Positions 19,332-40,645 of a DNA stretch of 64,000 nt are shown here, one piece after another. Positions within the stretch are counted from its first letter, which is position 1. Every line of letters starts with the position of its first letter. Source of the stretch: Cyanidioschyzon merolae (lineage: Eukaryota). A program made the translations under genes and the position numbers. The DNA lies in NCBI GenBank assembly GCA_000091205.1, contig AP006497.2; one strand, written 5' to 3'. The notes beneath the pieces were generated by a model. That model saw only the letters and a list, made by a program, of their open reading frames with translations, did not search any database and was not told the origin of the DNA.

Positions 19332-20950
19332 GCTGTCAAGACTCCGCACTTTTTTATATCGTCAGGACTGATCTGGCACTTTTCCATCTCGAGCGTCTGA
19401 AGTGTACACCCCAGCTCGTGGTCTATGCAGGACGTCCGGAACTCGTCTATCGGGAATGTGACAAAACGCCTTGCGCACTCCTTGTAAGCGCGTGTCGGTG
19501 AGGCTGGAGTGCACCCTGTTTTCGACGCCCAGCGCCCTGCTCCCTATGCTGCTACGAGGCTTTGACGCTTGTCCTCCTTGAGGGTGCTCAGCGCATGAAA
19601 AAAGTTCCCAAATGCACGCCATTCCGCACAGTACAAGTTCATATGCGGACGATGGCATGGACATTGGCTTTTGAACGCTCTCTCCGCCGCTGCTTCCATT
19701 GCCGCTCTCTTAGCCCCGAGTGAACATGTGCCGGTCTCTCTTGTCCTTGCAGTTCCCGAGTCAGCAGTCGAGGGATGTCGGTGGCAGCGTTCAAGTTCCG
19801 ATTTCGCCACTTCCCGCCCGTGGTAACGCGTCCCGCGCGTAGGGCCAAGTTGCGGTCCGCACGTCGTTCCCCACGTTCATCTTCTGTGCACATACAGCTT
19901 CGGTGTGTCTTTCGCTGCGCTGACACCGGACTGTGATCAGACGTTCGCATATTCGTCTGCCGCATCTCTCACGCGACCGAGCGCCGCCCTGTGGCATGCG
20001 AAGGCTTGCTTCAGCGCTCGATGCATGTCCGGGACTGGCGTAGAAGGCGCTCGTCGAATCCATTCTTTGTCTGCATACCCGATGCCGTGACGAACGATGA
20101 CGGGCTGGTTCCGGGCGATTCCCTTTGCGAGTGCGCTGTATGGTGCAAAAGCAAGCATACGCAGTCCCGTTTGAGAAGGGATTCGTGGAATGCGATATTG
20201 GCCTTGGTGAGGCAGGCACCGGAATGATAACACTCATAGGAGAACCAGTCGAGTGATTTCGATCCGTCCACGCTGTTCTACAGCGAAGCGGCGATCCAGT
20301 CTGCACCAGAGGCGATCGCTGCGACGACTATAGTCAAGGACTTCATTCCATGCAACCAGAAGAGGCGAGTGCATCTGGGCGCGAATCCCCGTGTAACGTA
20401 CGATGCAGCTGTCGAATTCCCTGTCTCGCGGATGACCACAGGGACACAAGGATTTGTCTTTCGAAAGGATTCGATCATTTGATACGAGAAGCACGATGAG
20501 GCTTGGGCGTGAGCGTGTGAACACGTCGTCAAGGAGCGACGTCGGGCTCCGTGCCGCGCCAGTCCAGTGGCGAGCATTGCTGTGCCCACGGGTTGCCTTG
20601 AAACAGAAAGATCGAAAACATGAAGCATGCATGATTTGCGCATGCTATACACAAGGAACGCGATAGCGGTAGAGGCTTGTGCCTACAAATTGGTTCATAA
20701 AATCGGCTATTTTACAAACCTTTGTTTGGCGGCGTCGAGAAGCATCTCGATCCCGGTGACGTATCGAGTTACAGGGGCAACGCGTCGAAAGTGGCACGCA
20801 GTAACGCCGACCGGGAATCCGGAAACTGCGCATGAATTTCCAAGCCCTGATTGTTGCACTTTGAGTGTCTAGACCATATATCTAGGACAATGCCGGGAAA
20901 AAAAATCGAAAGGCAGGGCCAGCGCGTGCAGTGCAGTATCCCGTATTCAT
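19332..20950 (-). mobile_element. R1: a ~1.6 kb repeat carrying a decayed TnpB/Fanzor-like coding region; it is copy 1 of a direct-repeat pair
   Basis: It is about 97-98% identical to 39027..40645, with a constant offset of 19,695 bp. The minus strand encodes fragments in three frames, including WRAFGNFFHALSTLKEDKRQ and the zinc finger ...FRTSC..HELGC...CQISPDDIKKCG at its low-coordinate end. Multiple frameshifts leave no intact ORF. Confidence 0.7.
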
Positions 20951-22673
20951 CCAACGGTGGCACAGCGCTGCGGGAATCGGGCACCATTGAGGCGGGGCGT
21001 GTGTTGCGATGAATTCTATAATCAAAAGAACGTTCTGTTCTGAGCACGGGACCGAACGCTCGATGGATATCATCACCCTGGAAAGCGTCCATTATGCCTC
21101 GCCTTACGTTCAGGTACCAGCCGCCACTAGGCATACTTTTCCTCAGAGATACTAGTCGTCATATGTGTTCAACACTGTTCCGAATCTTCCGAAAATGCCG
21201 GGCAAATTGCGCTGGCTGTGGAGCGCGCTTCGAATGTAGTGCACCAGTGCCGAGAGCGCTTCGACGGCTCGTGCCATCGCGTCTCTGGTACGCCAGGCGA
21301 AGACGAGCCAACGTTGTTGCTGGTGTAAAACTTCTGAAAGGTGCCATGGATTTGGCATTCGCAGGCAGGAGTTGCACAGGCGACACCGACAGCGTACTAT
21401 CAAAAAAATAGGCGCATGGCATGTCGTAGCATAGGGAGCCTTCGTCTCATGAGTGTGTACTGGAAACACGAGTGGCTGCCGCACAGAAGCTGCGGATCGC
21501 GCCGAGAAGCAGCTGGGCATGCGCACAACCCGAGTAATGGGGCACACGCGAGCGTCTCGACGCGACTCCAGTGCTCCAGAATGCCTGGAAGCGTGTGCCG
21601 CGGCCTAGGCTGCCAGGCAAGCCTCGTTCGAGCGGCACCGTCCGGCGCGAGTCGAGTGCGACCTCCCCTCCCACGAGTCAGGCATCCGGGTGCCGGACGC
21701 AAATGATCCTCAGTCGGTATAGCGCGTGCGCATATTGTAGCGACGTGCTCCGATATGGCCGCAACACGTAGGCCACTGGCGCAACTTTTTCGCAGCCCGA
21801 CATACTCTAAACTGCCCAGAGGCTTCTCACTGCGCTTCATGCCGCAAAGCGTTTCCAGTCAGTACTTAGGGCGGTGTCGAGCGCCCTGCTCGACGCAGCG
21901 TTCTCGCGCGCCGCATCAAGTCGTTCTGCAATTCATCATCATTGTTCCGCCTCCGTGACTCGATTCAGTCGCATGCCCTCTAGACTTGCCATCCCGAGTC
22001 GCTGCCCGCGCATTGCGTCCACGAAAGCTCGTCTGTGTAGACAACAAGCGAATCGTTCCAGTCACAACGCTCGTCCCCGTGGACGCGATACAGGATACCC
22101 GCGTCGCCACACGCAGCGGTTACTCGAAGCGTCCCGCTCCTGCCGCTGATACGAGTGCTGCGGCCTCAGCGTCGATATGCCTGCGCAGCGCATGTTTCCG
22201 GCCTGCTTTTTTTTCATTGACAAAACGTTTACTTAGGCCAGCGTTCTCCGATTACGCGCATTTTTCTTTTCTTACTTTTTTCTGTGAGTGTTTTTTTCCC
22301 CGCCCTGCTGCGGAGGCGCGGCGCCCGCGCGATCGATGAACGCATCCCCGCGGATCGTTGCAAAAGCGCGACACGTCACAGCGCCGCATGCGTGCGTGCG
22401 TGCCGGCGGCGGCGGCGGCGGGAACAGCACTGTGGCATGCGTGCGTGCCGCGAACGCTCATTCAACAGTAGGCTCTCAGCGCAGCGTTCTGTTTTTGGGC
22501 GAATACAGGGAGCACCGGCAGTGTTCATCGAGAAGGAGTGTACTACGCGCCTGTGCGAGCGGTGACCGGGCGAAGGACCATTCGGTAGGTATCACTTGGT
22601 ACTCGTTCGAGAACGCCAGAGTTTTCTGCAGAAGCTTTTCGGATTTCGGTAAGAGGAGCCAGCGCGCCGAGGA

Positions 22674-25031
22674 ATGCTTGGTGATAGCACACGTCCCGTG
22701 TTCCTCTCGCCGGGCTTTTGGTGGATAGCCACAGCGCTCCTTTCAACGTATGCCGTTGTCGACGCGCACCTTGGTCACCTCACCAGTGTTTTCGAACGCG
22801 TTGCCGTGGCAGTGCCTTTGGGCTGGGCGGTGTCCTCGTGGCTCGCGTATTTGTTTGCGTCGCTGCGCTACCAAACGCTTGATGTACGATCCGTTCGAGC
22901 TGCTTGGCTAGTGCAAGCTGCAATCGGCTTGTTTCATGTGTGGCTGGTTCAGCGACGGAGAAAGGCGGGTCATGAACCAGCTGGCACCGTGAGGGACTCG
23001 CCGGCCCGCAGTGCGAAGGTAGCACCGCACAGGCCTGGGATGGGCGTCACAGCATTGACGGCTTTGATTGTCTGGCCCATGGTCTCGAGTCGTTTCCTGC
23101 GGAACGAACCAGATGGTAGCGTGAGCTCAGGTGGCGCAACCTGGGCCGATTTGCCGTTCCACATGAATATAGCGGCATCGTTCCTCTATGGAACGAACCG
23201 GGAATTCGACTATCGTCGCACAGAGGCAGCATTTTATGCAGGTTCGCGCCTTGTTTATCCGCTACTTCCAGACTTTCATGCAGCGTGTCTGCGGGTATCG
23301 GGCATGAGCTGGCGCATGAGTTTTCTGCTACCGGCACTGTTTCTGGCTGTATCAGCATCGGCGCTGCTGTATGCGGTGAACTGGCGTTTAACCGGCAGTC
23401 GCGCCGCTGCCGTGCTCTCCGTTCTCCTCGTCATGTGTGCAGGTGGTACCGGGTCCTTTGAGCACTGGATCGAGCGAGGCTGGAGTCACGCGACGCGCGT
23501 AGCCTGGGATGTGGATCCGGTCCAAGCTGACCGTGAGGGCGGCAGACAAGAGATCCTGTGGTTTGCCTACTTTGGGCATGTGTTCTTGCCACAGCGACCG
23601 GCCACGTATGCAATTCCCCTGATCCTCATTGTTATCCTGCTGCTTGTTCTTGCCATGACCGAAGGTGTTCCGCTTCAACAGAGCGCTATTGTGTTGAGGC
23701 TGGCGGCCTTTGTCGCCGGTATCTTGCCCTTATTCCAGGCGCACGCATTTGTTGGTGCAGTGATTCTCTGCTCTGTGCTCTTCATTATGGATTTCGACCG
23801 ATGGTACACACATATGGATCTTCTCTGGCGAGGGTGGCTCACAGCCGCTTTCATCGGTTTGGCGTTGTCGGCGCCCCAGCTTCCGGTATACATCGGGAGG
23901 GTGGCATCGTCGAGGGAGCAAAGAGGCTTTCTTCGCTTCTCTTGGACGGCAATGTCATCCTTCAACAGAGGGTTTTGGAGAACCTGGTTCCGCGCCCTGA
24001 CTCTACACGTTCCAGTCTATACACTTGTGTTTGGCATTGTGTCCGTGGTGCTGTTGGCACAGGCGCTTGCAGATCTGGAGAGACTTTTCGGAGTACGCGG
24101 ATACTTTCCGATCGTGGAACGCATCCAAAACCGCGTTGTGCACTTGCTGCGGGGCCTTGCTCCGGCTTTTAGCGGGCCTTCACATTACTGGCGTTTGAAG
24201 TTCTTCCCCGCATTCGCTGCAGTTTTCGTTTTCTGTAATCTTTTCCTCATTCAGCCATGGGTCAAGGATAACGTCAAGCTCGTGTATATTTGGCTCTTTC
24301 AGGCTGCAGGTGTCGTTGGGTATCTGCTGGTGCGTTTATGGCGGCGCGGTGGGCCTCTGGGCAAGCTCCTGACCCCGCTGATCCTGTTTTTCATGCTCTT
24401 TAGCGGCTTTCTGGGGATGCGCCGAGAATGGGGTGGCGTTACGGCTGAGCTCTTCACACCCGCCGATCAAGAGCTAGGTGAATGGATCAAAATGAACACG
24501 CATTGGCGATCGGTGTTTCTGACTGGCGAAGAGCACGTCAATCCCGCTTGTGCCCTCGGCGGAAGATCGCTGTATCTTGGCTACCTGGGCTGGGTGTGGT
24601 CCCATGGTCTGCCGAATATTCACGAGCGAGTGCAGCTTCGGGACAAAGTGCTTCGAGGTGATGATCGGAATGGGACAGAGCTCTTGAATCTGCTCCGATT
24701 CCGGCGAGTGAGTCATATTTTGCTGGAGCCAAGAATACCGGATCCAGGCTTTGAGAGCATTTTTAACCCGTCCGACGTATGGCTCGGGTACGAGAACCAA
24801 GGATGGCGTCTGTACTTCATCAAGGATGTCGTTCTCGGTGATCGGCCCATCGAGTCTATCTCGAGAGAGCAGCTCTTCTTCTCGACTGGAGTCTCGCTCG
24901 TTGCACTCTGGATGGCCGCTATCTGCTTGTGGTATTTGCCGTGCGTGTTTACGCGGCAGAAGACCGAAGAAGACGGGAACTACGTGCTGCCGCATGGCAC
25001 GATCGGCGGTCGACGCATGAAAGCGCTGTAG
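22674..25031 (+). CDS. Polytopic membrane protein of unknown function (GT-C-like topology: ~12+ TM helices followed by a ~200-aa soluble C-terminal domain)
   Basis: This is a 785-aa ORF with many hydrophobic segments over the first ~560 aa. A W/Y-rich soluble C-terminal domain follows. No family was recognised with confidence. A (GGC)n/CpG-rich tract lies upstream at ~22290..22480. Confidence 0.45.
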   Translation: MLGDSTRPVFLSPGFWWIATALLSTYAVVDAHLGHLTSVFERVAVAVPLGWAVSSWLAYLFASLRYQTLDVRSVRAAWLVQAAIGLFHVWLVQRRRKAGHEPAGTVRDSPARSAKVAPHRPGMGVTALTALIVWPMVSSRFLRNEPDGSVSSGGATWADLPFHMNIAASFLYGTNREFDYRRTEAAFYAGSRLVYPLLPDFHAACLRVSGMSWRMSFLLPALFLAVSASALLYAVNWRLTGSRAAAVLSVLLVMCAGGTGSFEHWIERGWSHATRVAWDVDPVQADREGGRQEILWFAYFGHVFLPQRPATYAIPLILIVILLLVLAMTEGVPLQQSAIVLRLAAFVAGILPLFQAHAFVGAVILCSVLFIMDFDRWYTHMDLLWRGWLTAAFIGLALSAPQLPVYIGRVASSREQRGFLRFSWTAMSSFNRGFWRTWFRALTLHVPVYTLVFGIVSVVLLAQALADLERLFGVRGYFPIVERIQNRVVHLLRGLAPAFSGPSHYWRLKFFPAFAAVFVFCNLFLIQPWVKDNVKLVYIWLFQAAGVVGYLLVRLWRRGGPLGKLLTPLILFFMLFSGFLGMRREWGGVTAELFTPADQELGEWIKMNTHWRSVFLTGEEHVNPACALGGRSLYLGYLGWVWSHGLPNIHERVQLRDKVLRGDDRNGTELLNLLRFRRVSHILLEPRIPDPGFESIFNPSDVWLGYENQGWRLYFIKDVVLGDRPIESISREQLFFSTGVSLVALWMAAICLWYLPCVFTRQKTEEDGNYVLPHGTIGGRRMKAL

Positions 25032-26485
25032 CCAATGGCTTCATGAAGAGGGGTTAACGCTCGAGGCTCGACGATATCTTGCTTCTGTCCGCTACATTGC
25101 GAAGCGATTCTTTGGCCGACGCGAGTTGTGCGTACGTATCCGGAATTCGGTGTTGCAGCATCTCAGCGGAGAGGCCATGAATGCTGCACTCGTCAGGCTT
25201 GCTCTCTGACTATCGCCAACGACGTGTCTCTTCATATCTAGTGGGGTCTAGTGACCATTTCGTGCCTGCTACAGCGATGCCAAACGACAAGCATGCAGGT
25301 AGGCAGCCATGTATACCCATACACATACGCAGGCGCTGTTCGTGTTGGAGAAGGCACGGCGCCCTGGTCGCATGCTCGTTCAGGGCACAGGCCAACGCGG
25401 TGACAACGAGCAGCATCCCCGTCCTCGCGGATCGCAAACCGGAGAGCGTCGATTCACTACCAGGACTGCGTGCTCGGGTTGTGTTGTGGCGACGCATAGC
25501 GTCGGGGCACTCATCTTGATGACTAAGCGGGTGCAGCTTTTGAACCGACCGGCTTGAGCCGGAGATCAGCCGCCTGAGCAGCCACGGGAACGATGACGAA
25601 GCGTGCTGGGGTGCGCAAATGCCGCGCACTATTCTAAACGAGACATCAGCGATTCTCTCGTAGTCCCTGGGTACGAGTATTCCCGCATTGCGACGACATG
25701 GCGGGCCATTGATCCATGCGCCTGGTTCACGTTCAGCACAAACCCTGTGGTGTTTTGCAAGTTGTCCCAGTAGTGTCGCCTTTTTGAACGCGAGCAAGCC
25801 TGAGGCTTCGATATCAACCGACTGCGGGCAGGAATTTACGGTGCCAGCGTTGCCGGATGCCTCTGCATGATATGGCAACCTAGACACCGTCGTCGCCAGA
25901 GGCGGGTATGTTGAATCAGCGTATGTGACAGGTCATCGATACATGGGATGTATTGGGTACTCCATGAGCGAGTGCAGCCTATCAGCACATCACATTTGCC
26001 CGCCACTCTCGGAATAACAACCAAACACCTCCAGTCCTCTGGGCGTCGTTTCGTCCTAGAGTGCCACTCCATAATCAGCTAGAACGGGAGAATCAGCAAA
26101 TTCGAGCGCTGAAATCTCCGCTTGTCGGTAAAGGCGTCAACGCAGGGGTGATCTGAGCCAAAGCGACACGTTTCCGTGCGCTGCATATACCCGGGTCCAT
26201 GCCATCGAAGCATTTGTGCAGCGCGGTTTCTCAGTTGCGCGTTGACGTCCGTGTTGCGCAGTAGCACCCCGTGGGGTATTTCAACGCGACCCGTTTGGAT
26301 GCGTCATAAGCGCACACGATTCATGGAGCGGGCACGGCGGACTCGGGACACGCTCAGATGCGTGCCTGAGCGCTCCTTCGATATGCAGCACCATCGAAAG
26401 AGACCAACATGAGGAACGAGCTGTACCTCTGTTGAATGGATACAGATGAACGTATATGCTGCGTTGAGGATGCGGGCACGCGGGG

Positions 26486-29400
26486 ATGACGCCCGAAACA
26501 ATCGCATCGCCTCCAAGCGCTGCAAGGAGAGATGAAATTTTTGTTCGTCAACGGCACCTTTACACACACACACACACAGAGCGATACTTCGGGAATCTGC
26601 TATGTCACGACTGGTATCGGCTTTCGGGAAAGCATCCATCGTTTCGCGTCCTTGTCCCGGGGATTCCACCTCCCCCCAGACTTTCACTCTGGGACACGCG
26701 TTCTGTCTCACGCTCTAACGTGCGTCCAGAGTGCCACCTAGAGCGCCGGTGCGGTCGCAGTACGCAGTCAGAACGGCTTTGCGATACCCCAGCGGGCACC
26801 GGCTCGTCATGGAACAGACGAATGGACGTGCGATGCCCGCTTGCCTGTCGCCAGGTCCGCTGGTGGTCGTGCAGGCGCTGGGGATGCCATCAAGCCAGCG
26901 CCTCTGGCCAATCGATACGCAGCAGCGAAGGGACGCGGAAAATACGCTCACTGCAGCGGGTACGAACTGGCTCTGCACTCCTGGACTGGGTCTACGTTGC
27001 TATGAACCTTGTTCGGAGCCAGCTTGCCTTACAGCGACTACAAGACGGAATTGAGTCCGTTCGATGGAGATATACTGTATTGGATGCGTTGCGAGTAGAG
27101 CCGCGGTTCGTTTCTGCGCTCGTGGCTCGTGAACGGAGCTCCGGAGAGCGTCCTGCGACAACGTCCAGCTCGCGTGACTGCCTCGTGGCGGAGCGTCTTG
27201 ACGGTATCGACGTCGGTGCGGCGGTGACCGAGGCAGAGCTGTGGACTCGGGCGGCAGAACGGGCACCAAAACTTGTTGTACGCCTTGTGGAGTTTATCAA
27301 GGTGGGTGCACGGAGCTGCGTGTTTGTGTACGAAACCTACACGCCAGTCGACCGCGACGCCACGCCGACAGACGCTCAGGTAGTTCGGGTTGCTGCCCAG
27401 GCTTTTTGCCTAGTACGCCTGTGCGAAACGCTGGGCACAAGTGTCAACGGTAGACTGGACAGGTCCGAACTTAGCTTTCAAGGCAAAGCGCGTGGTTTCG
27501 GACCTGGAGTTCTTCTCAGGAGGGAGGCACCGGCAGGCGTCCTCGAAAGCGAATCGGCTGCATCCGAAAGCATAGCCCAGCAGGATGAAAAACAAGTCGT
27601 CTTTCAGCTGGGATGCCTTATGGGCGATCTTTTAGCCGAGGACACGCAGTACTATTCTCGGCGGTTACTACGCCTGCAAGCTAGTTGTGTTCGAGAAGCA
27701 CCTGAAGCGCGTCCAACGCTGAATATCGTGGAGCGGAAGCTTCGACGTCAGATTCAGCGCCTGGTGCGAGCACGCTCCGACAGCGGCTCCACCGAGGCAC
27801 GCGATGAACCACCGTCTACCCCGGAAATCAGCGATGTGACTGCACCGGTGCCGAGCCACGAAGACCTAGAAGAAATGTTGCACCAATGGGAGAGCGGCAT
27901 GTCTGGTAGCCAGACACCGGGACGGGCGTCGAAGAGCTCGCGGGACTCGGAGTCGACGGTGCCAGCCTCTTGTGCCGCTTACCCCGCTGGACCCAGCGTC
28001 GACTCAAATCCCCTTGGCGGTCATGTCGAGGCACCCTGGGCCATGGAGTCGTGCAGTGACCCGACACCGAACGCTGATCGAGTCGAGCAGCTCATTCAGC
28101 TGGCTTTGGGACGTTCCGAGCAAAGCTTCGGGTTTCCGCACTGCATTCGAGCGTTGCTGCTCGAGGCGTTCGCTCGACCCGATCGAGCCGTCATCGACAC
28201 CGTGCTCAAAGCGCTTCGTCGGCGAGTCTTGCAGGACGCTCTGAGCGTATTTTCTCGTTTGCAAGCGCTGTATATTATTCACTTTCTGTTGCTCCGCGGG
28301 CCGCGGAGCGTTTACGATAGCGCCATAACTTACACGGATTTTATTTCTCTTCTTAGGTCCGCTGGTCAGCGTTCCACAAAGACTGCCTTGAAGCAGGTGT
28401 CTCCCAGACCAAAAGGGGCAGGCTTTTGGGTCCAGGGTTGCACTGGCGGCTCCCGGGATGCAACAGGGATCGTGCACCGATACCGTGAAAGAGACCCTTA
28501 TGGCTGGGTGGTCGGCAGCGCGGTGCACGCAAAAGGCGACCAGCAGGCCGAGCGCTCGGCGAACCGCCGACAGGAGATGCTTCTCGAGCAAGCCAATGAG
28601 CTATCGAGGCACTACGGTGCACTTATCCTGAGCAAACTCGACGCGGTGCGGACCTGGCGAGACCAACGGGGCGCAAACAACGACGATGCGCGCCACCAGT
28701 CGAGACGTTTGGGGATGGCGTCCTCGTTGTTGCAAATTTCGAAATCCGCAGGCAAATTGGCTGAAGAGCTCCTTACAAACCCCGCTCCATTACCATTTCG
28801 AGAGCCAGTGATTGATGAGCTACTCTTGGATGTGTTGTGCGGCTTTGCTACCGTGACCTCTATTTTGGCGCCCCGTTTGAGTGGCGTCGAGCGCGTTCGA
28901 CTGGATCACGAGTTCGTCGTGATTTTTCGAGGACTTGCGCGCCTTTTTGGGCTCGCAATTCCCTATTACATCGAACGGAGCCACGAGGCCTTCCTGCGGA
29001 TCGGTCGGAGTCTGTGGGGCCTCTCGCAGAATTGCTCCCTCGACGAACGAACGATTTTCATACAGGCTGCGCGGCGACTTCCGGCGGAGCTGGCTATCGG
29101 CTGTGGCCTTCGCGCTCCAGACACTTATTCGGCGCTACCAGCGTTGGCGCTGTACGCGTTCCGCGCATGCTCATCGTCGAAGTCGGGTAACGTTCGGTCG
29201 ATGCAAGTGGATGCAACGCTGGCTTCCGCCGTGGCAACGACTGCAGATATAACAGCCGATGATTACCGTGCCGCACATTGCCGGGCGCGGAGTAAGAGCA
29301 TCTGCACTGTGCCAAGTTTCGAGACCAGGCTCGGGAATCTGCCCCTGAACCCTGAAGCAACACCTGCGAGACTTGGGCGAAATCTGGATATCGACTGGTT

Positions 29401-30214: not shown

Positions 30215-31127
30215 AATAGAGGCGTGCGGCTGTCTGGGGCGCTTCTTCGAGTCTGGGCGGCGTCGGATGCGCACCACTGGGGTGCGCGTCTACTCCTGCT
30301 CATACGCGAATGTATCGCACAATCGGTATCGTTTTCCGGTTCCGTTTGGCGATCTCGCGACAGTTACGATGGTATGATAAAGTCGGGGAAATAGATGGCC
30401 CCGTTTTGCAACGCGTGAAACTGCATCGGTGGCAGGAACATACCCGCGTAAACATCATCGTGCAGAGCGAATGTTGCTTCCGATCCACCAGGACAAGCAT
30501 GCGCCTCGGAAGAAATTACGGGATACCGCTTCATGGACACGCTGTCGTTGTCGCAGACAAAACACAGCTTCCGTCATCGGCATGCCAACAAACGATGCCT
30601 CGATCATGGCCAGGTCAGGGGTCCGGGGGTGCAGCGCCGCGCTCCAGGTGTGCACACCGAACACTCCCGAGGCGTGTGCGATGCGCGAACGCCGATGCGC
30701 GCACGGGCACATTCACGCACACGTATGCGATGCGGGAACGGAATGCGTGCGAAGCGACACGTGGCACCACCAAAATGCGCCGCGGAGATTGTCGCGCGAT
30801 TACGCACGAGCTGCCCAGGTGGGCACGGATGCGGTTTCCGCACGTCAAGTCACTTCATTTTACATTGGTGTTGATCATTAAGGTTGTACGTTGCGTCAAC
30901 AGCCGACAGAGTTTTTCTAGGTACTTCGTAAACGAGTTCTATGGCGCCGCAAGGAGACAAAGGTAAGGGAAAGGAGGCAGAGCAGTCCAAACCGATGGGT
31001 GGTCCAGCGATGGCCAAGCCTGCTGCGGATAAGCCTGGGGATAAGCCCGGACAAGGCAGGGCAGGTGGAAAGCCCAAGGGCAAGTGAGCACGTCCTCTGA
31101 AGGTTGTGGGTGTTCTACCGGAATCGT

Positions 31128-31185
31128 ATGGTTGGTTAGTTGGTTGGTTAATTGGTTAGTTGGTTGGTTGGTTGGCTATCGTATT
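31128..31185. repeat. GGTT/GGTTAGTT-type simple repeat
   Basis: ggttggttagttggttggttaattggttagttggttggttggttggct lies in the kinase/Pelota convergent intergenic region. Confidence 0.85.
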
Positions 31186-32041
31186 GACAAGTGGGTGCTA
31201 ACTTTAGCCGCCGGCGTGACACACGTTGTTTGGTAAGGTGTCGCAGTTCGCGAGCGAGGTCGCAGCGTCTGGACCGTCGACACGGCTGAGGGCGCGTCCT
31301 TGTCAGGTAATCGTCCGCACTGGCGTGGTTGTCAGAGCACGGGTGCGCTGGAACGGATGCTCGTGGTCGTCGTCGATGCTCAGTAGAACAGCGGCGGCGC
31401 CGACTGCATTCCGATGAATGGCAGGGTTTTCCGGCGAGGTCTTGGGGCATCATGAGCATTGCCACCATCGTCGTCGTCATGTTGGTGCCGATGTCGTCAT
31501 GGATTCCATGGTGGCCACGGGTGTGGAGCGATGACATTCAGTGTAAACGTTTTTTCTTGGAGAAAATTAAAGACTTCCATCGGTGTACCAGGCGCACAAC
31601 ACGCGCTGTCCATACGCCCGTGGCGCCGAAAAGACTCAGTGGTAACAAAATCGTGGATGCCGCTGACCTCCTCGACAGCGGGTGTATTTGACGCAACACG
31701 GTACGGGCGCGGCGGCATGGATCGAACGGAGTATGCGGTCTCTGCTTCCTTGTATTTCGTATCAGGGCGCGTGTGCCGCAGCCGTGAAACGGAGCGCGCG
31801 CGCGAACCCCAACACACCCATGGACAGCGGTGATATCGCCGCAGCGATTGCATCGCTGGTATCGCTCCTCCGGAATGACCTATTCCGTGCAGCACGAACT
31901 GCCTCGACAACGGCTCGATGACGCCCCGCATCATTCAGAGCCGGGAGCATGCTCCATAGAGACCAGACGGGCGTCGACTCGAGCGTCGCCTCCGGTTCGA
32001 ACTGTTGCCGCTGTCCCAGACGCTTGCACTCGATTCCAGCG

Positions 32042-33262
32042 TCACCACGATGTTGCTGTGGACTCGGCATTGCACCGAGTCTCGATATCGCTGGTGTCAG
32101 TGTCCTGTGCATCATCATCGGTATCGATCCAGGGAAAGCGCAAAAGCGCGGCAATGCCGCCGATATCCGCCAACTGCTGGCCAGTCGCGTGTGCGCTACT
32201 GAAGAGATGCACCTGGCCTCGGGCCGACTCCACCTGATCGACCAGGGCAACGAAGCGCTTCCTTTCTGACACCTCTCGATGGCGGAACAAGGCGTCCGTG
32301 ATTAGGAGGTGCTCGACTGCACCCATTTGTGCGGCTCTCTCTACCTGGTCCGGGCCATAAAGCGCACGATCTGAATCCTGATGTATCTGCTCGTAAAAGG
32401 TCTGTAGCAAACGCTGGTTCACAGCAGCCTTGGTGTCATTGATCAGGGTCATGGTCTCGGGCGAGGCGAGCACTTCATGAACGGCCTGCATGCGACCACT
32501 GCCTGCCGCCACAGCGATGAACTGTCGCTTGTGTTCCAGAATAGACCGCAGGTCCCGTCGAGCGGCCTCGGCAAACAGGTACTGCAGGAACTGCTCCCGC
32601 ACGTAACCCGGTGAAGCGATGACGACGCAACGCACTTGTTCTAAGTTTACCTGCTGGAGCAGTGCTCGCATTACTGCCTCGAAAAAGCGTTCCAGCGCTT
32701 TATCTCGCACGCCGAAAGCGGTTGCGGCGCGCTGCAACTTGCTGGGAACGTGCTGCTGGATCCGCGCTCGAAGCAGCGTTGCAGTGCCGCTTACGAGACA
32801 GAGGTGCGCGAGTCCTTCCTCCATGACGCAGATCGCGATGTCCGCGGACTTGCTGGGATCACAGGCGGTTTCCAAGGTTCGTAGGTGGACGCGGTCGAAC
32901 TGCGACTTGATGAGATCGAACCGAAGCCCGGTCGTTATCTCGAGCGTGTGGTGCTGCTCTCGCTTCACATACTCGTTTTCGGACACGTTCTTGCCCTGGA
33001 TCCGGAGGGAAGGTGCCTCCGTGTCATAGTCAATTCGTTGTACCCGGATCGTCAGCACGAGTCGTACGCGTTCCGTGTGCCGAGCACTGGCGCGTTGCTC
33101 AGTCGCCCCCGCGAGAGCGACTTTTCGCCAGGTGGTTGTTCGCACCAAGTCGCCTTTGTCGATGAGGTTATAGGCGTGCCAGAGGTCCTCGCTGTTTTCT
33201 GGTAAGAGCGCAACTTCAAAGCGCTGATCTTTCAGGCTCACACTGCGTCGGAGGAGCTTCAT
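32042..33262 (-). CDS. Pelota/Dom34 (eRF1-like ribosome rescue factor)
   Basis: The ORF is colinear with Pelota. Matching blocks are MKLL...LLPENSEDLWHAYNLIDKGDLVRTTTWRKV, RIQGKNVSENEYVK, ACDPSKSADIA.VMEEGLAHLCLV, VIASPGYVREQF, ALERFFE, YGPDQVERAAQMGAVEHLLITDALFR and IAALLRFP. The likely start is MKLLRR at 33262. Confidence 0.85.
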   Translation of the reverse strand: MKLLRRSVSLKDQRFEVALLPENSEDLWHAYNLIDKGDLVRTTTWRKVALAGATEQRASARHTERVRLVLTIRVQRIDYDTEAPSLRIQGKNVSENEYVKREQHHTLEITTGLRFDLIKSQFDRVHLRTLETACDPSKSADIAICVMEEGLAHLCLVSGTATLLRARIQQHVPSKLQRAATAFGVRDKALERFFEAVMRALLQQVNLEQVRCVVIASPGYVREQFLQYLFAEAARRDLRSILEHKRQFIAVAAGSGRMQAVHEVLASPETMTLINDTKAAVNQRLLQTFYEQIHQDSDRALYGPDQVERAAQMGAVEHLLITDALFRHREVSERKRFVALVDQVESARGQVHLFSSAHATGQQLADIGGIAALLRFPWIDTDDDAQDTDTSDIETRCNAESTATSW

Positions 33263-34593
33263 ACGACGCTGCAACGGGTGTCAACAACGCCAGCGTCAAC
33301 CGCTTGATGGATACCTCGGGCTGTGCTTAAGTTCGCTGTAAACGCGGAACGAGAATGCTTCGTCAAGCGGAAATATCTGCAGGACGTTCGAACCCGATTC
33401 TATAGATCGGGTGGGTGACGCTCTTGATAAAGAGACACCAAGAGCCGGCTTCGTATGTGTAGGTAGACTGGTTACCTGGTTGCATGGAAGCACGGATTTG
33501 GTAAACACGCTTACTCGTAGCAGCGATGGCTCGGTTTTGTGTGGTATGTTCAGCTGCGCGCCTCATATGGAACACTTGTGAACAACAACTGGGGCAATAG
33601 AAACGCTGCGGAGACGCAAACCTTAGAGCGGACACGGTTGGTGGACTTCCCGCACAGCTGCACGCACGACTTGACGTTTGTGTCGAGCTTGCTATCCGCG
33701 AACGAGCTTGTTTACACGGTCAAAGGACTCATCGGGGTCGACAAACGTCCGACTACCCGGTTACTCTATCGAGTTTGCGAATATGCGTTCCAGAGCGCTA
33801 CGTTATGCTGCGAAAAGCCGCGTGTCACAGCACGAAGCGCTGCTCAGGGCACAGGTAGCTCGCTGCCGCGAGCGTATCGGTTCACGACTCGCTGGAAATC
33901 CCGTTCTAATGCAAGTGGTTAGCTTCTTGGCGAGTCGCGGAGCTGCAGCGGTAACGCTGTTTGCTCCGTACGCAGACTCCGTGGCGTCCGCGCAGGCTCT
34001 CCGACCCGAACGCTGAAACCAGTACCCGTCAGGAAGCCTGCTGCATAGATGGATATGAATCGGCATGGTTACCTCGAGGGCAAGGCTACATGCTGATTGA
34101 TACAATACGTTTGCTCGACGGACTCGAGCTTGCCATTGAATTCGTTATGACACTAGGCTCGTAACAGCTGCAACGAAATCACGAGTTTGCCCCAAGGTGC
34201 AGCAGCAGCAGCAGCGCTCACCCGGGTGCAGACGCGGGCTTGTTTCCGCGCGGCACCCGCGGTACGCTCGACGTCCATATGTTCCCTGAATCGATCAAGC
34301 CTAGCTTTCAGAGGACAAGGAATGGACAGGAGCAGGTAGACCGTGAAAGCATCCACAGAAGAATCGAAATCGCTTCGCTGGAAATCGGTTCTATTTGCAT
34401 GCATGCGAGTGTTTGTTTCGATGATTCATCGAGCGTAGATTGTAAGAAACAGCGAGCGAGTCGCATTTCGCGCGAGCAACTGTCCTGAGCTGGCGATACG
34501 CACGATCCTTGCCTTCATCAGTCAACATGGAAGCGGACTTTTAGGATGATCGCACAAGCACGGTATCGGTGGCGAGCGAATGATCGTGATGCC

Positions 34594-36306
34594 TCACGAA
34601 TCGCATAATCCGCACGCTTCAAGGAACTGTTCAGGGTGCTCCAGAAACGGTACATGGCCACATGCCGGAATCACCCGGAAACTGACCTGATGCTCCCGAG
34701 GCGCTGCCTTGTCCATCACTTGATATGCTCGCTCAAGTTCATGCACGCTGATCAGCGAGTCCGTGGCTCCAGCAACGATGCGGATTCGGCCATTCACACA
34801 ACATGGGAGTTGCTCGAGAATAGACCCGCCAGTAGTCTCACCATCTGAGGCCAGCGGGTGCACGCAACGCGCTGTGCGTTTCTTATGCGATACGGTTACG
34901 AGCGCTGCGAACGCCAGATCAGCACTTTGTCCGCCACGACGTGTTGCCAAAGCGTACGTGTAGCGGCGGAGGTACCGCGAGCGAAATCCCAAATCGCGTC
35001 CGGGCCATCGCAGCCGGAATGCTAGATAGCCAAGCACTCCGGCGTTTCGCATGATCATTTGCGGCGTGAGCTGGAAGTACACCGCTCGTTTGTAGCTTTG
35101 CTTGGACCAGATGCCTGCGGGCGTCACGAGCACGAGGTTCTGGACCAGCCCATTCGATGCTTCGACGGTGTAGCGGCTGGCAACGTAGGCGCCGAGCGAA
35201 TGGGCAACAATGTCGATACGTTTCCCGTTTTTGCGACACCAGCTTTCGATGCCGGAACTGTACAGAAATTCAGAGATGCCACGAATCATAAAATGGACAG
35301 CTACTTGGGCCCTCGCTGCGGTGTCCCTCGGGGCACGTCCTGTCGTGTATGGCGGTCGAGACGAGCGCCCCCATCCGAGCATATCGATGGCGTAAACGAC
35401 ATAGCGCCCGGTAGCGGCGAAATCCGCGAGAACGTGTCGGAAGTAAGCAGAAGACATGGAGTGTCCATGAATGAGCAGCAGAGGCCTCAATTGAGGATTT
35501 GTCCCCGAAAACATGTCCTGCTCGTTGCCGGCCACCAGCACGTGCACAAAGGGCAAGGCCGCAGCTGGCGACCGGTTACCGCTTTCGGGGACTTGGGAGG
35601 ATGTGTCGCTTGAAACGCTCGACATGGGTGTCCGCTCGAATGACTCACTATCGGCTACATCCGTTAAAGGAGACAAGTAATCATCTACGCTGAGTGGCGC
35701 CTTCAGTCTCGAAACGCTCATCTCAGAAGACCATTCAGGGAGCGCTTCAGAGCTGACAGAGCTCAGCGAAGGACAACGCCGAAGTATGGGATCTATCGCT
35801 TGAAGTGCTCCACTTTCCGCCTGTTCGACGGGAATATCATCGAAATTGAGTTTTCGCTCGAGCCGTTCCGTACTGGTGCTCGCAACAGCTGCGCACCGGG
35901 TCGCTGCCGTCGGGCCGGACTGCTCCCAGCGCGCGAGCGTGACGCGCCGTGCAGTGACCACCTCGGTATTGGCCTGTTGGGGGCTCGTTCCTCGTCGCCA
36001 TGAATTTCGGAGGGAGCGAATGCGCTCGTATGACAGCTCATCGCTCCCAGCAGGCGGTGCATGGGAGCTTGAGCACGCGCCCTGGTATTCACGACGCAAG
36101 CAGAGCCCCACTTCTGCGAGCACTTTTTCCTCCAGAGCGTCAAGATCCCGCTCAACCACCGGTGGTCGCGTACCCAGTAGGCGAGATAAACACTTTTGCG
36201 CCTCCAGGCTTATGAAAAAAAAGGTTATAACTCGTAACATGGCAGTGCACGTGGAAGCAGCACCAACTCGCGCACTGCACATGCATGGAGCCGCAGCTGC
36301 CGCCAT
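34594..36306 (-). CDS. Alpha/beta-hydrolase fold protein (ABHD4/ABHD5-like); the 5' end is uncertain
   Basis: Motifs are LLLIHGHSMSSAYF, a nucleophile elbow AHSLGAY, and C-terminal ACGHVPFLEHPEQF. The N-terminal ~200 aa of the ORF are Ser-rich low complexity and may not all be coding. Confidence 0.6.
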   Translation of the reverse strand: MAAAAAPCMCSARVGAASTCTAMLRVITFFFISLEAQKCLSRLLGTRPPVVERDLDALEEKVLAEVGLCLRREYQGACSSSHAPPAGSDELSYERIRSLRNSWRRGTSPQQANTEVVTARRVTLARWEQSGPTAATRCAAVASTSTERLERKLNFDDIPVEQAESGALQAIDPILRRCPSLSSVSSEALPEWSSEMSVSRLKAPLSVDDYLSPLTDVADSESFERTPMSSVSSDTSSQVPESGNRSPAAALPFVHVLVAGNEQDMFSGTNPQLRPLLLIHGHSMSSAYFRHVLADFAATGRYVVYAIDMLGWGRSSRPPYTTGRAPRDTAARAQVAVHFMIRGISEFLYSSGIESWCRKNGKRIDIVAHSLGAYVASRYTVEASNGLVQNLVLVTPAGIWSKQSYKRAVYFQLTPQMIMRNAGVLGYLAFRLRWPGRDLGFRSRYLRRYTYALATRRGGQSADLAFAALVTVSHKKRTARCVHPLASDGETTGGSILEQLPCCVNGRIRIVAGATDSLISVHELERAYQVMDKAAPREHQVSFRVIPACGHVPFLEHPEQFLEACGLCDS

Positions 36307-36569
36307 GTCGCTACCCGCCCGGATCCGGTACCGATGCGGTGCGATGCGTTGCCGCGCGCGCGCGGGCGCTGCGGCGCGCCATCCGTTTGCGCTTACGATT
36401 ATAGAGTTTCACCTGAACTGTGTTCCACGTTCAGATCCGTGTCAACGAATGCCTGTTCGCGGTTTATTGCAGGTGCTTTCTACGTGCGTTGATTTTCAAA
36501 AATGCAATATTCAAAGGAAAAGTATGGACATGCAAGTCGGGATCATGGAGGTGAGATGTTGCCTGATTC

Positions 36570-36910
36570 GACAAAAAGAAACACGATAAGATTCCTCTTA
36601 TTGCCGAGTATCGGACGAAGAAACGCGAGTGACGAAGGCGAAGTGGAAGAAGCGTGTTGATAGGCGAGGAGAGCTGTTTGCCCGACGAGGCTGTGACGTG
36701 ACCTTGGTGGCACAGAGGGCACGAGTCCTTATGCACCCTTGCGTTGATGACTTGTACCAGAGACAATACACGCTGGGAGTTCATGAATCGAGACTTCAAC
36801 GCTGCGCCATTAAAAACAGACGATGTGCGGTGCTGAAGAGGCGACCCGCGTACCCGACGCGAGCCAACTTTGTGGGCCAGCCTCTCACACTCGATGTGTG
36901 CAACGATAAA
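36570..36910 (+). pseudogene. Copy C: a truncated 'X + RuvC-III tail' fragment, frameshifted
   Basis: The plus strand reads EFMNRDFNAAPLKTDDVRC, then shifts frame to IKNRRCAVLKRRPAYPTRANFVGQPLTLDVCNDKL. Segment X lies at 36584..36780. The copy sits in the promoter region of the minus-strand hydrolase gene, which starts at 36306. Confidence 0.55.
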
Positions 36911-37591
36911 CTGAACTCACTAGTCCTGAAGCTTTACGTATATCGGCGTTATACAGCAGTTCGCTACATGTCGGAAGCGTCGGATGCCACGTGGTTCCTA
37001 AATTCGCATGAAAGTTCACTACAGCAACGCCGTACCACACACCATGAGTGATGCTCGTCGTCTTTGCAAAGACGCTTCCGTGCATTGTCGCTGGTATAGG
37101 GGCAGTCAGCTTGTCAAATAGCGTCGTGCGGGTACCCTGAATCAACTGGAAACCAAGCATCCAATCGATTCAAGGTGTTTCTCAGTCACAGTTGGGCGTC
37201 AAGTTGTCCTGATCATGCAGCGACAGAGGCGGCAGCCGCTCAGCACCCCCTGAGTCGGAGTTCCACGTCTGCAATCCGCCATTGTGCTCGGCTGAAGAAG
37301 CGTATCGACAAACGTGCAACAGGCATGAGCCACAGATCGGCCGCTGAGCTACATGTATCCGGACGCTCGTTTCCGCCTGCAGAGCCATCACGTATGCGCA
37401 TGAGAAAGTTCGCACCCGATGCATACATCTCGAAGCAAACCGCATGCTGCCGGCTGTGGATAAAGTGCTCTATTCAACGGACAAGTCGAACGCGAACGCC
37501 CTCCAAGTGGCGGCACCACTGAATCGGACAATGTTTACAACCTGCCATGCCTTGCGGTATGCTGCTAACGCTCATTCCAGGCGCTCGAGGT

Positions 37592-38668
37592 CTAGTTCAA
37601 GGGTTTCGTCGCAAGCCACACCCGATGCCGCGGCGTATTGTTTTCGGTCTGCACGTCAGTGAATCCACTGATTGTCAGTAAACTGACCATATCGACGCGT
37701 TCATACTCAGAAAAATACGGTTCAGTGCTGCGGAATATGGCTGCTCCGACCGGGGGTATCGAACGGAACGCTTCGCTGTGCGGATCAGAATCCATCATCG
37801 CCAACATGCCTCCGGGGCGAAGCACTCGATACGCCTCTACCACGAGACGCTCGGTCGCTGCCATGGGCAGCTCATGTGTCACCAGGGAACATAACACGAG
37901 GTCCACCGAATCCGCTTTCTGAGGGAGGTTCTCGACCGCGGCGTGCTTAAAACGCACCTGAATCGATGACGGGTAGCTGCGCTCCTCTGCACGTAACTCG
38001 GCAACCGCAAGCATGAACGTCGATAAATCGATTCCTGTTATGTCGAGCGGGCGTTCCGGATACCGTGCTAGCCATGCATCGATGAAGCGCATCGTGCTGA
38101 GTCCAGTCGACGCACCCAGGTCGAGTGCTACCAGTGGACGTCCCATGGGCACGAGCAGCTGTTCCAGACGAGGCCAGACTCGGTCCAGGAAGGTGTCGCG
38201 TAGCAGGCGGTCACCTTGCGTGGGCGGTGCTTCCGGGAAAAGGCGTGCATGGACCGCCAGAGCCGACGACTCGACTTCCATGGCAGGAATCCAGCCAAGG
38301 TTCCCTTCCGGATACGTATGGAACGGTGCACGTACGTAGTAGTCTGGATATACGAGGTCGCGTTCGACAAGTCGCGCTCGTTTCTGTTCGAGGGTGTCCC
38401 ACTTGAGCCGCAGCTCACGAACGTTCTCTCGCCAGGGCACGCCGATCTCCTCCGCTCTCTTGACGACACCTGCACGGCCAATTCGCTTCAGTAACCAAGC
38501 AGTGGGCGGGAAAGCTAAAATCCCTTGTACTATCAGAGCCGGCAGTTTGCCCTCGGGGTTTCGCGTCACTGGAGTCGTCGCCGAAGCGTGAATCCATCGA
38601 CAAGCTCGGTATCGAGTGCACTTCTGAGACGGCAGTCTCACGCATGGAACAAAGTTTAACTGCGTCAT
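37592..38668 (-). CDS. Class I SAM-dependent methyltransferase (Methyltransf_11-like)
   Basis: Motif I is VALDLGASTGLSTMRF. Downstream blocks are DLVLCSLVTHELP and LRPGGMLAMMD. The likely start is MTQLNF at 38668. The longer ORF, 37592..39505, reads through in frame from a Fanzor/TnpB-like remnant upstream and is judged chimeric. Confidence 0.55.
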   Translation of the reverse strand: MTQLNFVPCVRLPSQKCTRYRACRWIHASATTPVTRNPEGKLPALIVQGILAFPPTAWLLKRIGRAGVVKRAEEIGVPWRENVRELRLKWDTLEQKRARLVERDLVYPDYYVRAPFHTYPEGNLGWIPAMEVESSALAVHARLFPEAPPTQGDRLLRDTFLDRVWPRLEQLLVPMGRPLVALDLGASTGLSTMRFIDAWLARYPERPLDITGIDLSTFMLAVAELRAEERSYPSSIQVRFKHAAVENLPQKADSVDLVLCSLVTHELPMAATERLVVEAYRVLRPGGMLAMMDSDPHSEAFRSIPPVGAAIFRSTEPYFSEYERVDMVSLLTISGFTDVQTENNTPRHRVWLATKPLN

Positions 38669-38744
38669 GAGGCTCGCTATCAAACGCCGTTCTAAAGTCG
38701 AACGACGTCGGACGTGTATCGTAGTGGCGGTGAACGTGCCTTCG

Positions 38745-39026
38745 ACCAGAGGTCTTCGACTGTCGTGCAGACGCCTTCCGGTCTTTTCGGACCGGCCACC
38801 TACTCCTGATTCCAACTTTTTCTCATATAATTCCACTTTGAGCGATTGTCCAACAAAGTTCTCTCTTGTCCACTCTGGAGGTCTTTTCTCCAGCACCGCA
38901 CATCTCCTGACATTGACAGCAGCGTTGAAGTCTCGGTTGACGAATTCCATACGTTTCTTGCCGCCGTTGGTTGTGCTCACCAGCGCATGTAGTGCTCGAA
39001 CTTTCGTCCTGCTTCCCATTTGCTCT
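38745..39026 (-). pseudogene. TnpB/Fanzor-like C-terminal segment (RuvC-III motif DFNAAVNV) plus a conserved 3' tail
   Basis: GGKKRMEFVNRDFNAAVNVRRCAVL matches the TnpB/Cas12 RuvC-III consensus (AD.NAA.NI) with the catalytic Asp present. It is preceded by a CxxC...CxxCG zinc finger and the FVTFPIDEFRTSC block (compare TnpB VxVdPxYTSqxCsxCG). A 3' motif CAGGAGTAGGTGGCCGGTCCGAAAAG at ~38745..38770 is shared with copies at ~55440 and ~15690. Confidence 0.65.
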
Positions 39027-40645
39027 TCTGTCAAGACTCCGCACTTTTTTATATCGTCAGGACTGATCTGGCAATTTTCCATCTCGAGCGTCTGAAGTGT
39101 ACACCCCAGCTCGTGGTCTATGCAGGACGTCCGGAACTCGTCTATCGGGAATGTGACAAAACGCCTTGCGCACTCCTTGTACGCGCGTGTCGGTGAGGCT
39201 GGAGTGCACCCTGTTTTCGACGCCCAGCGCCCTGCTCCGTATGCTGGTACGAGCCTTTGACGCTTGTCCTCCTTGAGGGTGCTCAGCGCATGAAAAAAGT
39301 TCCCAAATGCACGCCATTCCGCACAGTACAAGTTCATACGCGGACGATGGCATGGACCTTGGCTTTTGCACGCTCTCTCCGCCACTGCTTCCATTGCCGC
39401 TCTCTTAGCCCCGAGTGAACATGTGCCGGTCTCTCTTGTCCTTGCAGTTCCCGAGTCAGCAGTCGAGGGATGTCGATGGCAGCGTTCAAGTTCCGATTTC
39501 GCCACTTCCCGCCCTTGGTAACGCGTCCCGCGCGTAGGGCCAAGTTGCGGTCCGCACGTCGTTCCCCACGTTCATCTTCTGTGCACATACAGCTTCGGTG
39601 TGTCTTTCGCTGCGCTGACACCGGACTATGATCAGACGTTCGCATATTCGTCTGCCGCATCTCTCACGCGACCGAGCGCCGCCCTGTGGCATGCGAAGGC
39701 TTGCTTCAGCGCTCGATGCATGTCCGGGACTGGCGTAGAAGGCGCTCGTCGAATCCATTCTTTGTCTGCATACCGGATGCCGTGACGAACGATGACGGGC
39801 TGCTTCCGGGCGATTCCCTTTGCGAGTGCGCTGTATGGTGCAAAAGCAAGCATACGCTGTCCCGTTTGAGAAGGGATTCGTGGAATGCGATATTGGCCGT
39901 GGTGAAGCAGGCACCGGAACGATAACACTCATAGGAGAACCAGTCAAGTGATTTCGATCCGTCCACGCTGTTCTACAGCGAAGCGGCGATCCAGTCTGCA
40001 CCAGAGGCGATCGCTGCGACGACTATAGTCAGGGACTTCATTCCATGCAACCAGAAGAGGCGAGTGCATCTGGGCGCGAATCCCCGTGTAACGTACGATG
40101 CAGCTGTCGAATTCCCTGTCTCGCGGATGACCACAGGGACACAAGGATTTGTCTTTCGAAAGGATTCGATCATTTGATACGAGAAGCACGATGAGGCTTG
40201 GGCGTGAGCGTGTGAACACGTCGTCAAGGAGCGACGTCGGGCTCCGTGCCGCGCCAGTCCAGTGGCGAGCATTGCTGTGCCCACGGGTTGCCTTGAAACA
40301 GAAAGATCGAAAACATGAAGCATGCATGATTTGCGCATGCTGTACACAAGGAATGCGATAGCGGTAGAGGCTTGTGCCTACAAATTGGTTCATAAAATCG
40401 GCTATTTTACAAACCTTTGTTTGGCGGCGTCGAGAAGCATCTCGATCCCGGCGACGTATCGAGTTACAGGGGCAACGCGTCGAAAGTGGCACGCAGTAAC
40501 GCCGACCGGGAATCCGGAAACCGCGCATGAATTCCCAAGCCCTGATTGTTGCACTTTGAGTGTCTAGACCATATATCTAGGAAAATGCCGGGGAATAAAA
40601 TCGAAAGGCAGGGCCAGCGTGTGCAGTGCAGTATCCCATTCCAAT
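39027..40645 (-). mobile_element. R2: copy 2 of the 1.6 kb direct repeat; it is continuous with a RuvC-III-encoding tail at 38745..39026
   Basis: The ORFs at 39057..39371, 39486..40001 and 39973..40347 are near-identical to those at 19362..19664, 19791..20306 and 20278..20652. The minus strand across the boundary reads ...EFRTSCIDHELGCTLQTLEMENCQISPDDIKKCGVLTEEQMGSRTKVRALHALVSTTNGGKKRMEFVNRDFNAAVNVRRCAVLEKRPPEWTRENFVGQSL. Confidence 0.7.

Follow-up and report, generated by a model that had tools for sequence, protein, structure and literature searches.

We analyzed a 64,000-nucleotide stretch of chromosome 15 of the model red alga Cyanidioschyzon merolae 10D (GenBank assembly GCA_000091205.1, contig AP006497.2; hereafter the window), in which two long direct repeats, here called R1 and R2, bracket a block of host genes. 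An earlier note on the same sequence had described the pair and proposed either two recent insertions of one Fanzor-bearing element or a local duplication. We found that a single 1.62-kb stretch of dead transposon debris is present twice, as R1 and as R2. The pair constitutes an ordinary low-copy repeat rather than an active Fanzor element, and R1 probably derives from R2.

Anatomy of the repeat pair

The repeats and their parts are listed below, with the methods that defined them in brackets.

19333 to 20956, minus strand: R1, the secondary, truncated copy; core 19333-20942, tip 20943-20956 more diverged (self-alignment, MAFFT)
39028 to 40651, minus strand: R2, the copy in its original context; core 39028-40637 (self-alignment, MAFFT)
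19333 to 19652, minus strand: CMe-1A slice in R1, ending abruptly at 19333; IDEFRTS at 19430-19450 (blastn)
39028 to 39347, minus strand: CMe-1A slice in R2, consensus 2504-2823, codons ~534-640 (blastn, 82% identity)
39346 to 40651, minus strand: U portion of R2 (equivalent in R1 ~19651-20956), a frameshifted relic; motif RNRNLNAAIDI at 39469-39498 (paralogues, consensus)

Gapped self-alignment of the window paired R1 (19333-20956) with R2 (39028-40651) as direct repeats of 1,624 bp each at a constant offset of 19,695 bp. The earlier note had reported ~97-98% identical direct repeats of 1.6 kb at this same offset, and its coordinates were accurate to within 1-6 bp. The alignment (1,626 columns, E = 0) has an identity of 97.9%, with 30 substitutions and two mutually cancelling 1-bp indels; similarity is uninterrupted over the 1,624 bp, neither patchy nor shorter than had been claimed. 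At the left the boundary is abrupt: the 46 bp adjoining it inside the repeat are identical, and unrelated sequence follows immediately outside. At the right, a MAFFT alignment confined the 98%-identity core to 19333-20942 in R1 and 39028-40637 in R2. Past 20942/40637 lies a tip of ~15-20 nt that is apparently related, with one substitution and two 2-nt indels, and whose homology had weak statistical backing in an anchored-extension test (p~0.03). Flank comparisons found no shared sequence beyond these limits on either side. A larger segmental duplication that includes R1 and R2, which the earlier note had named as a possible refutation, is therefore ruled out by the unrelated flanks. The termini read CTGTC.../...TATCCC. 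A third, partial match to the repeat (55434-56009, 74-76% identity), which the earlier note had overlooked, is part of a near full-length CMe-1A copy.

CMe-1A is the Fanzor1 element of C. merolae and has no terminal inverted repeats (PMC3627910). The 253-copy, 3.2-kb interspersed repeat that Nozaki et al. reported in 2007 (PMC1955436) very probably represents the same family. We mapped the 3,169-bp consensus and 734-aa protein of CMe-1A (supplement of Bao and Jurka, 2013; PMC3627910) by blastn. On the minus strand, each repeat consists of ~1.3 kb of a relic that we call U, joined directly to a 320-bp internal slice of CMe-1A (codons ~534-640). Only this left ~320 bp looks protein-coding ('...MNLYCAEWRAFGNFF...VPAYGAGRW...IDEFRTS...'), and it has many metagenomic relatives. 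The RuvC-II motif IDEFRTS is present in both copies (R2, 39125-39145; R1, 19430-19450), neither locus has the RuvC-I motif (GADPG, residue 429), and NRDFNAA, the RuvC-III motif, lies at R2 only, outside the repeat (38918-38938), with no counterpart at R1. CMe-1A sequence thus amounts to 320 bp inside the repeat, and to 634 bp at R2 including the tail, rather than to a complete ~3.2-kb element with both ends. Neither R1 nor R2 can encode a Fanzor nuclease. The epithet "Fanzor-bearing" is apt insofar as Fanzor-derived sequence is present, but the repeat carries only ~107 of the 734 codons and no intact element. The Fanzor1 assignment of the CMe-1 family rests on PMC3627910; Pfam and PDB sequence searches of the family gave no match at threshold, and an AlphaFold model of a family member was unusable (predicted local distance difference test score, 51.6). 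Neither Rfam nor tRNA scans gave a hit in the window; the 3' end of CMe-1A, where a guide (omega) RNA would be expected, lies outside the repeat.

U (40651-39346) does not belong to CMe-1A. It is a dispersed repeat whose collinear paralogues are 67-75% identical, namely U3 (48491-49810, plus strand), U4 in an environmental contig (L006, see below) and a fragment at 5848-6176, and homology among R1, R2, U3 and U4 starts at one shared point, the right end of the repeat. Stop codons interrupt every frame of U, about nine in each. All stops and frameshifts are common to R1 and R2, and the pieces of U stand in the same shifted reading frames in both copies, which indicates that the sequence was dead before it was duplicated. 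A majority consensus of three U copies reads 'KKPVILSYGIGHG...VDICEHLTAVRYHRC...LCAKC...RHRDLNAAIDILRLL' and keeps the motif order YG.G .. CEH .. C..C .. HRDLNAAI.IL. This consensus matched PF07282 (Cas12f1-like TNB domain) at E = 0.0027 and 18.3 bits, below the 26.3-bit cut-off. Against CMe-1, U gave a weak but collinear blastp match to residues 561-686 (E = 0.002) and a weak hhalign profile-profile alignment (probability 25%, E = 7.7e-4). An exhaustive search of 1.84 billion representatives returned only three short relatives, one of them with 'NRDLIAAINIL'. A multi-frame search of a 5.8-billion-protein index found nothing and is uninformative, having missed identical open reading frames (ORFs) called on contig L001. 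From these motifs and matches we suggest, with moderate confidence, that U may be the decayed C-terminal half of a second, distant TnpB/Fanzor-like lineage; that each of the matches falls below threshold speaks against such an assignment. More than one Fanzor-like lineage has apparently left relics in C. merolae, although a single family has been described.

R2 probably lies in the original context of the transposon material

At R2, CMe-1A continues beyond the repeat:

38682 to 39027, minus strand: CMe-1A continuation outside R2, consensus 2824 to ~3137/3169; RuvC-III at 38918-38938 (contiguous consensus alignment)

Consensus positions 2504-3137 correspond here to 39347-38714 at 82% identity, unbroken across the repeat boundary at 39028 (consensus ~2823), and the protein of R2 plus this tail matches CMe-1 at 75% over residues 534-734. 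Extrapolated from the remaining consensus positions, the 3' end of CMe-1A adjoins the start of a methyltransferase gene. At R1, the consensus matches only from 2504 to ~2823 (19652-19333). Since CMe-1A is unbroken at R2 and cut inside the Fanzor frame at R1, R2 is the original context and R1 is secondary, and we infer that R2 was the donor of R1.

Syntenic loci of 14 and 21 kb were found in Cyanidiococcus yangmingshanensis (L010) and a second relative (L009), with the gene order Hint-Hint-YbaB-DUF2838-DAD1-methyltransferase-hydrolase(-Pelota-kinase). Neither of these two loci contains CMe-1A or U sequence, hence the transposon material at R2 is an insertion of the C. merolae lineage into host DNA. 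We noted that the DAD1 gene (PF02109), which lies between DUF2838 and the methyltransferase in both relatives (L009, 9085-9447; L010, 9351-9713), is absent from the whole window by tblastn, and that the 1.3-kb interval right of R2 (40652-41975) matches nothing in the relatives.

The minus-strand ORF at 37592-39505 runs out of R2 and has a class I methyltransferase at its C-terminal end. The 10D protein XP_005537574.1/BAM81538.1 (600 aa) matches this window ORF at 600/600 residues. Of consequence for annotation, that gene model (37592-39394, minus strand) carries ~240 transposon-derived residues fused to the methyltransferase; they comprise the last U codons and CMe-1A residues 534-734, read through via a lost stop codon. 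The same methyltransferase is 361 aa in Cyanidiococcus and in the second relative. The transposon-derived N-terminus of XP_005537574.1 reflects either a mis-annotated start or a true N-terminal extension.

R1 abuts a second truncated element and a short direct repeat

Three features flank R1:

18922 to 19332, plus strand: F19, a CMe-1A derivative in inverted orientation with an internal deletion, consensus ~786-940 and ~2790-2975, cut where R1 begins (alignment with F15 and F36, consensus mapping)
19325 to 19332, no strand: GCGCTGCG, first copy, abutting the left boundary of R1 (possible target-site duplication or microhomology)
20965 to 20972, no strand: GCGCTGCG, second copy, 8 nt past the right end of R1 (direct repeat)

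F19 contains a (TG)n run near 19270-19290, and its plus-strand match '..NGNARKEFVNR..ALNIMRCAV' stops at 19337. At this junction two truncated elements therefore meet head-on, with an overlap of at most 3 nt (CTG). The earlier note had proposed looking for target-site duplications. The GCGCTGCG pair around R1 is a candidate of 8 bp, but 8 nt separate its second copy from the right end of the repeat. Such a pair has an empirical chance of 0.1-0.3% in the window, and it is consistent with a staggered break filled in around an insert. No target duplications were found around the older copies (U3, U4, CMe-1A copy 3 and F36), and a lone, uncertain 9-mer was seen near F15. Just left of F19 is a long ORF encoding an acidic, Asp/Glu-rich repeat (17429-18479, minus strand), with 24 overlapping 80-nt copies in a repeat scan.

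Both copies occur in environmental strains

Five metagenome contigs contain an exact match to a 22-mer at the left end of the repeat, and we identified another three by protein look-ups; in the metagenome collection, the exact 22-mer located only the R1 and R2 loci. Contigs L001-L005 span the junction of R1 with its left flank, and L001 continues through R1 to the right flank. L007 and L008 join R2 to its left flank, L008 being collinear across left flank, R2 and right flank at 99.3%. All junction contigs are 99.1-99.4% identical to the window, and R1 and R2 are each present in every environmental contig that covers the respective locus. Both copies thus predate the divergence of the strains.

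About 19 of the 30 substitutions between R1 and R2 are private to the 10D lineage, and two (19663 and 19689) are locus-fixed, splitting all R1-locus from all R2-locus sequences. Several alleles in the left 200 bp (19382, 19467, 19502 and 19518-9) are common to R1 and R2 in the environmental lineage, unlike both 10D copies. Provided that the contigs are unmixed, this pattern points to duplication or homogenisation shortly before the strains split, and to short gene-conversion tracts thereafter.

One contig, L006, combines the left flank of R2, an R1-type repeat and the right flank of R1, and its flank parts are equally far from 10D (0.77-0.78%). This junction is the one expected of unequal crossing-over, which gives a 19.7-kb tandem duplication, or of a circular excision product. 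From L006 ~8640-9314 onward (window 24350-25031), nucleotide identity falls from 99% to 70-85% inside a 785-aa membrane-protein ORF whose length is kept. The switch reflects either recombination with a diverged lineage or chimeric co-assembly, and because of it a chimeric assembly is at least as likely as a recombination product to account for L006 as a whole. As for structural variants, which the earlier note had recommended checking, the environmental contigs show a duplication- or circle-type junction, possibly chimeric, and no deletion allele of the 18-kb block.

Direct orientation, location on one chromosome, a length of at least ~1 kb and an identity of at least 95% define low-copy repeats prone to non-allelic homologous recombination (NAHR), and R1 and R2 have all four properties. 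That the pair, with its 1.6 kb at 98%, could be a substrate for ectopic recombination, as had been suggested, is plausible. The pair has no coding function, and its only likely effect is to promote unequal recombination of the 18-kb block.

Origin of R1

Overall, we consider it somewhat more probable than its competitors combined that R1 arose by a single duplicative insertion from R2 and that the two copies have since undergone occasional conversion. We infer the timing and the mechanism of copying as follows. One duplicative event, shortly before the sampled strains separated, would have copied already degenerate DNA from R2 over a distance of 19.7 kb, and short gene-conversion patches were probably exchanged between R1 and R2 afterwards. 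Non-homologous insertion at a staggered break seems the most likely route. The inserted piece may have come from repair synthesis or fragment capture with a nearby donor, or from mobilisation in trans starting at the native 5' end of U; either route could leave an 8-bp direct repeat. The repair-type route in particular we advance tentatively, and would not yet bet on it at even stakes. Favouring it are the single event, the nearby dead donor, the one arbitrary internal breakpoint and the messy right junction. Of the two alternatives raised in the earlier note, it is the local duplication, on the same chromosome, that our analysis supports.

Two other candidates were rejected. Joint duplication of F36, the methyltransferase gene and R2 is excluded, F19 and F36 being only 69% identical. 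Repair primed by homology between F19 and the tail of R2 was discarded by reasoning only: the two are in opposite orientations, and the copied segment would not be inverted.

Several observations weigh against a single insertion from R2. No allele that lacks R1 was seen, and both the putative insertion and its putative 8-bp duplication were noticed post hoc. The rest of the F19 tail was not found right of R1, which speaks against a clean insertion into F19. The right boundary of R1 coincides with the native 5' end of U, which mobilisation in trans or homology-limited conversion would predict and random break repair would not. Moreover, the last ~15-20 nt of U are far more diverged than the core, which fits an older U overwritten by conversion, or error-prone synthesis at the junction. 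Lastly, the sharing of alleles between R1 and R2 in the environmental lineages could stem from metagenome contigs that mix the copies.

Some of these observations would be accommodated if R1 and R2 were old paralogues kept alike by gene conversion, the composite having been present at both loci long ago and a deletion between convergent CMe-1A tails having truncated both R1 and F19. The right boundary would then be the end of U and so the end of any possible homology, the U tip would be much more diverged than the core, as expected past a conversion tract, and the mosaic of alleles (shared at 19382, 19467, 19502 and 19518-9; fixed at 19663 and 19689) is typical of conversion. This scenario, however, needs three or more events, leaves the perfect identity right up to the abrupt left boundary unaccounted for, and makes an intact 8/8 flanking repeat unlikely after long divergence. 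Further copies of the composite junction were not seen by self-comparison of the window or with the metagenome 22-mer, and the first duplication of the composite would still require a mechanism of its own. We regard it as a serious but rather unlikely alternative. By analogy with 3' transduction or one-ended transposition, R1 might instead have been mobilised in trans from the 5' end of U: with the 3' end of U missing at R2, copying would have read through into CMe-1A until halted by a cryptic site. Such an origin would account for a 5' end shared precisely with U3 and U4, for the 320 bp of downstream flank carried in the copy and for the 8-bp flanking repeat, and in other organisms Fanzor1 elements are known to be carried by DNA transposons, Helitrons among them (PMC3627910). 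Yet U is an old family, its copies being 67-75% identical, with every frame interrupted by stops and no other young copies; its termini lack inverted repeats and do not resemble those of Helitrons, which moreover generate no target duplication; the U tip is not conserved between R1 and R2; and no transposase is known for CMe-1/U elements. We therefore judge this origin improbable. Also improbable is a more far-reaching reading in which R1 is a recent mobilisation of Fanzor-family debris from a defined element end, with an 8-bp target duplication, and R1 and R2 also recombine in the wild to give a 19.7-kb tandem duplication or circle. Mobilisation from an element end, if true, would give the first direct hint of how the CMe-1/U elements, which are unclassified, integrate in C. 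merolae.

Separate recent insertions of an active Fanzor-bearing element at the two loci, in line with the first suggestion of the earlier note, would explain why both copies contain Fanzor-derived sequence and are 98% identical. The unit is a chimera of codons ~534-640 of 734 and the dead relic U; both copies have one rearrangement junction and all frameshifts in common; one boundary is internal to an ORF that continues at R2 only; and the other CMe-1A copies are ~80% identical to the consensus (PMC3627910 and our mapping of the window). This suggestion did not survive, and we give it hardly any weight. Still less weight goes to an origin as the long terminal repeats (LTRs) of a retrotransposon, or to an assembly artefact, for all that the repeats are direct and of LTR-like length. 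Between them lie 18 kb of conserved cellular genes, of which four are in synteny with relatives, LTR-type termini are absent, and no LTR retrotransposons have been reported in the C. merolae genome (PMC1955436). The doubt that the earlier note cast on an LTR origin, on account of the cellular genes inside, was thus well founded. As for an artefact, the 10D assembly is finished and all four repeat junctions are reproduced by independent contigs. The genome is also nearly intron-less, which explains the long ORFs of the window. A single duplicative insertion from R2 hence remains our preferred reading, and a striking repeat pair in the finished genome of a model alga would be a one-off duplication of debris rather than an active RNA-guided nuclease element.

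The intervening gene block and other relics in the window

Pfam searches bore out the five gene identities that had been proposed for the 18-kb interval:

20957 to 39027, no strand: host gene block, which also holds the old transposon fragment F36 (Pfam, synteny)
22674 to 25031, plus strand: membrane-protein ORF, 785 aa (Pfam)
26486 to 30214, plus strand: TKL-type kinase (Pfam)
32042 to 33274, minus strand: Pelota (Pfam)
34594 to 36306, minus strand: alpha/beta hydrolase (Pfam)
37592 to ~38680, minus strand: class I methyltransferase (Pfam)

The order methyltransferase-hydrolase-Pelota-kinase is the same in two sister taxa, Cyanidiococcus and the second relative, and the portion of the block that these loci reach is ordinary conserved gene content. 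Exact-sequence look-ups of the kinase ORF, the membrane-protein ORF and a 637-aa ORF of the window returned no recorded match.

Other CMe-1A-related sequences in the window are:

55434 to 58511, minus strand: near full-length CMe-1A copy, 81% to consensus (consensus mapping)
43339 to 44152, minus strand: first 655 bp of CMe-1A, TE-N2_CMe-like (consensus mapping)
15291 to 15716, plus strand: F15, internally deleted CMe-1A derivative (alignment, consensus mapping)
36400 to 36949, plus strand: F36, internally deleted CMe-1A derivative (alignment, consensus mapping)

The copy at 55434-58511 is a pseudogene, with GAGPGN for GADPGN, IDGNRNS for VDEFRTS, and frameshifts. Inside the TE-N2_CMe-like copy are three 75-bp tandem units (43661-43884), whose number is apparently different in L008. 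F15, F19 and F36 have a common start (consensus ~786) and a common internal deletion (~940 to ~2790), which suggests a short non-autonomous subfamily that keeps the start codon region and the 3' tail. Two more Fanzor-like relics (772-2546, plus strand; 58743-59090, minus strand) show ~30% protein identity to CMe-1; together with U, they suggest more Fanzor families than the one listed for the C. merolae genome. A tandem pair of 68-bp units, 91% identical, lies at 52174-52309.

Comparison with known systems

The Fanzor-derived part of the repeat belongs to a family already described in 2007 and 2013 (PMC1955436, PMC3627910). What is new here is the specific duplication, U as a probable second Fanzor-like relic family, and one environmental contig with a candidate recombinant junction. 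The CMe-1A slice of the repeats (left 320 bp) and its continuation at R2 resemble CMe-1A in sequence (82% to consensus 2504-3137), in the CMe-1 motifs DEFRTS and NRDFNAA, and in having no terminal inverted repeats, as published for CMe-1A. They differ in that the repeat holds ~10% of the element fused to the unrelated relic U, and in that R1 and R2 are 98% identical whereas the family is ~80% identical to its consensus, so the pair does not reflect family-wide transposition.

Read-through or one-ended transposition, as in 3' transduction by Helitron/IS91 elements or L1 transduction, likewise yields a fixed element end and flanking DNA carried in the copy. R1, however, has neither Helitron termini (5'-TC, 3'-CTRR, A|T target) nor poly(A), and Helitrons would not leave the putative 8-bp duplication; Helitron ends were sought in the aligned termini of R1, R2, U3 and U4 and are absent there. 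Templated or captured insertions at double-strand breaks (synthesis-dependent strand annealing, microhomology-mediated break-induced replication, filler DNA) resemble R1 in the single event, the nearby donor, the arbitrary internal breakpoint, the microhomology or duplication at the junction and the one messy end. They differ in that random templated repair does not predict an end at a native element terminus.

Like the low-copy repeats that mediate NAHR, R1 and R2 are direct, lie on one chromosome, are 98% identical over 1.6 kb and bracket single-copy genes, and the L006 junction is of the corresponding type. Unlike them, R1 and R2 are very small and consist of transposon debris, with only one recombinant-type contig, which may be a chimera. 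R1 and R2 offer a defined site at which homologous recombination, whether it deletes, duplicates or circularises the 18-kb block with Pelota and the kinase, could be followed in a haploid alga whose gene targeting is known to be efficient.

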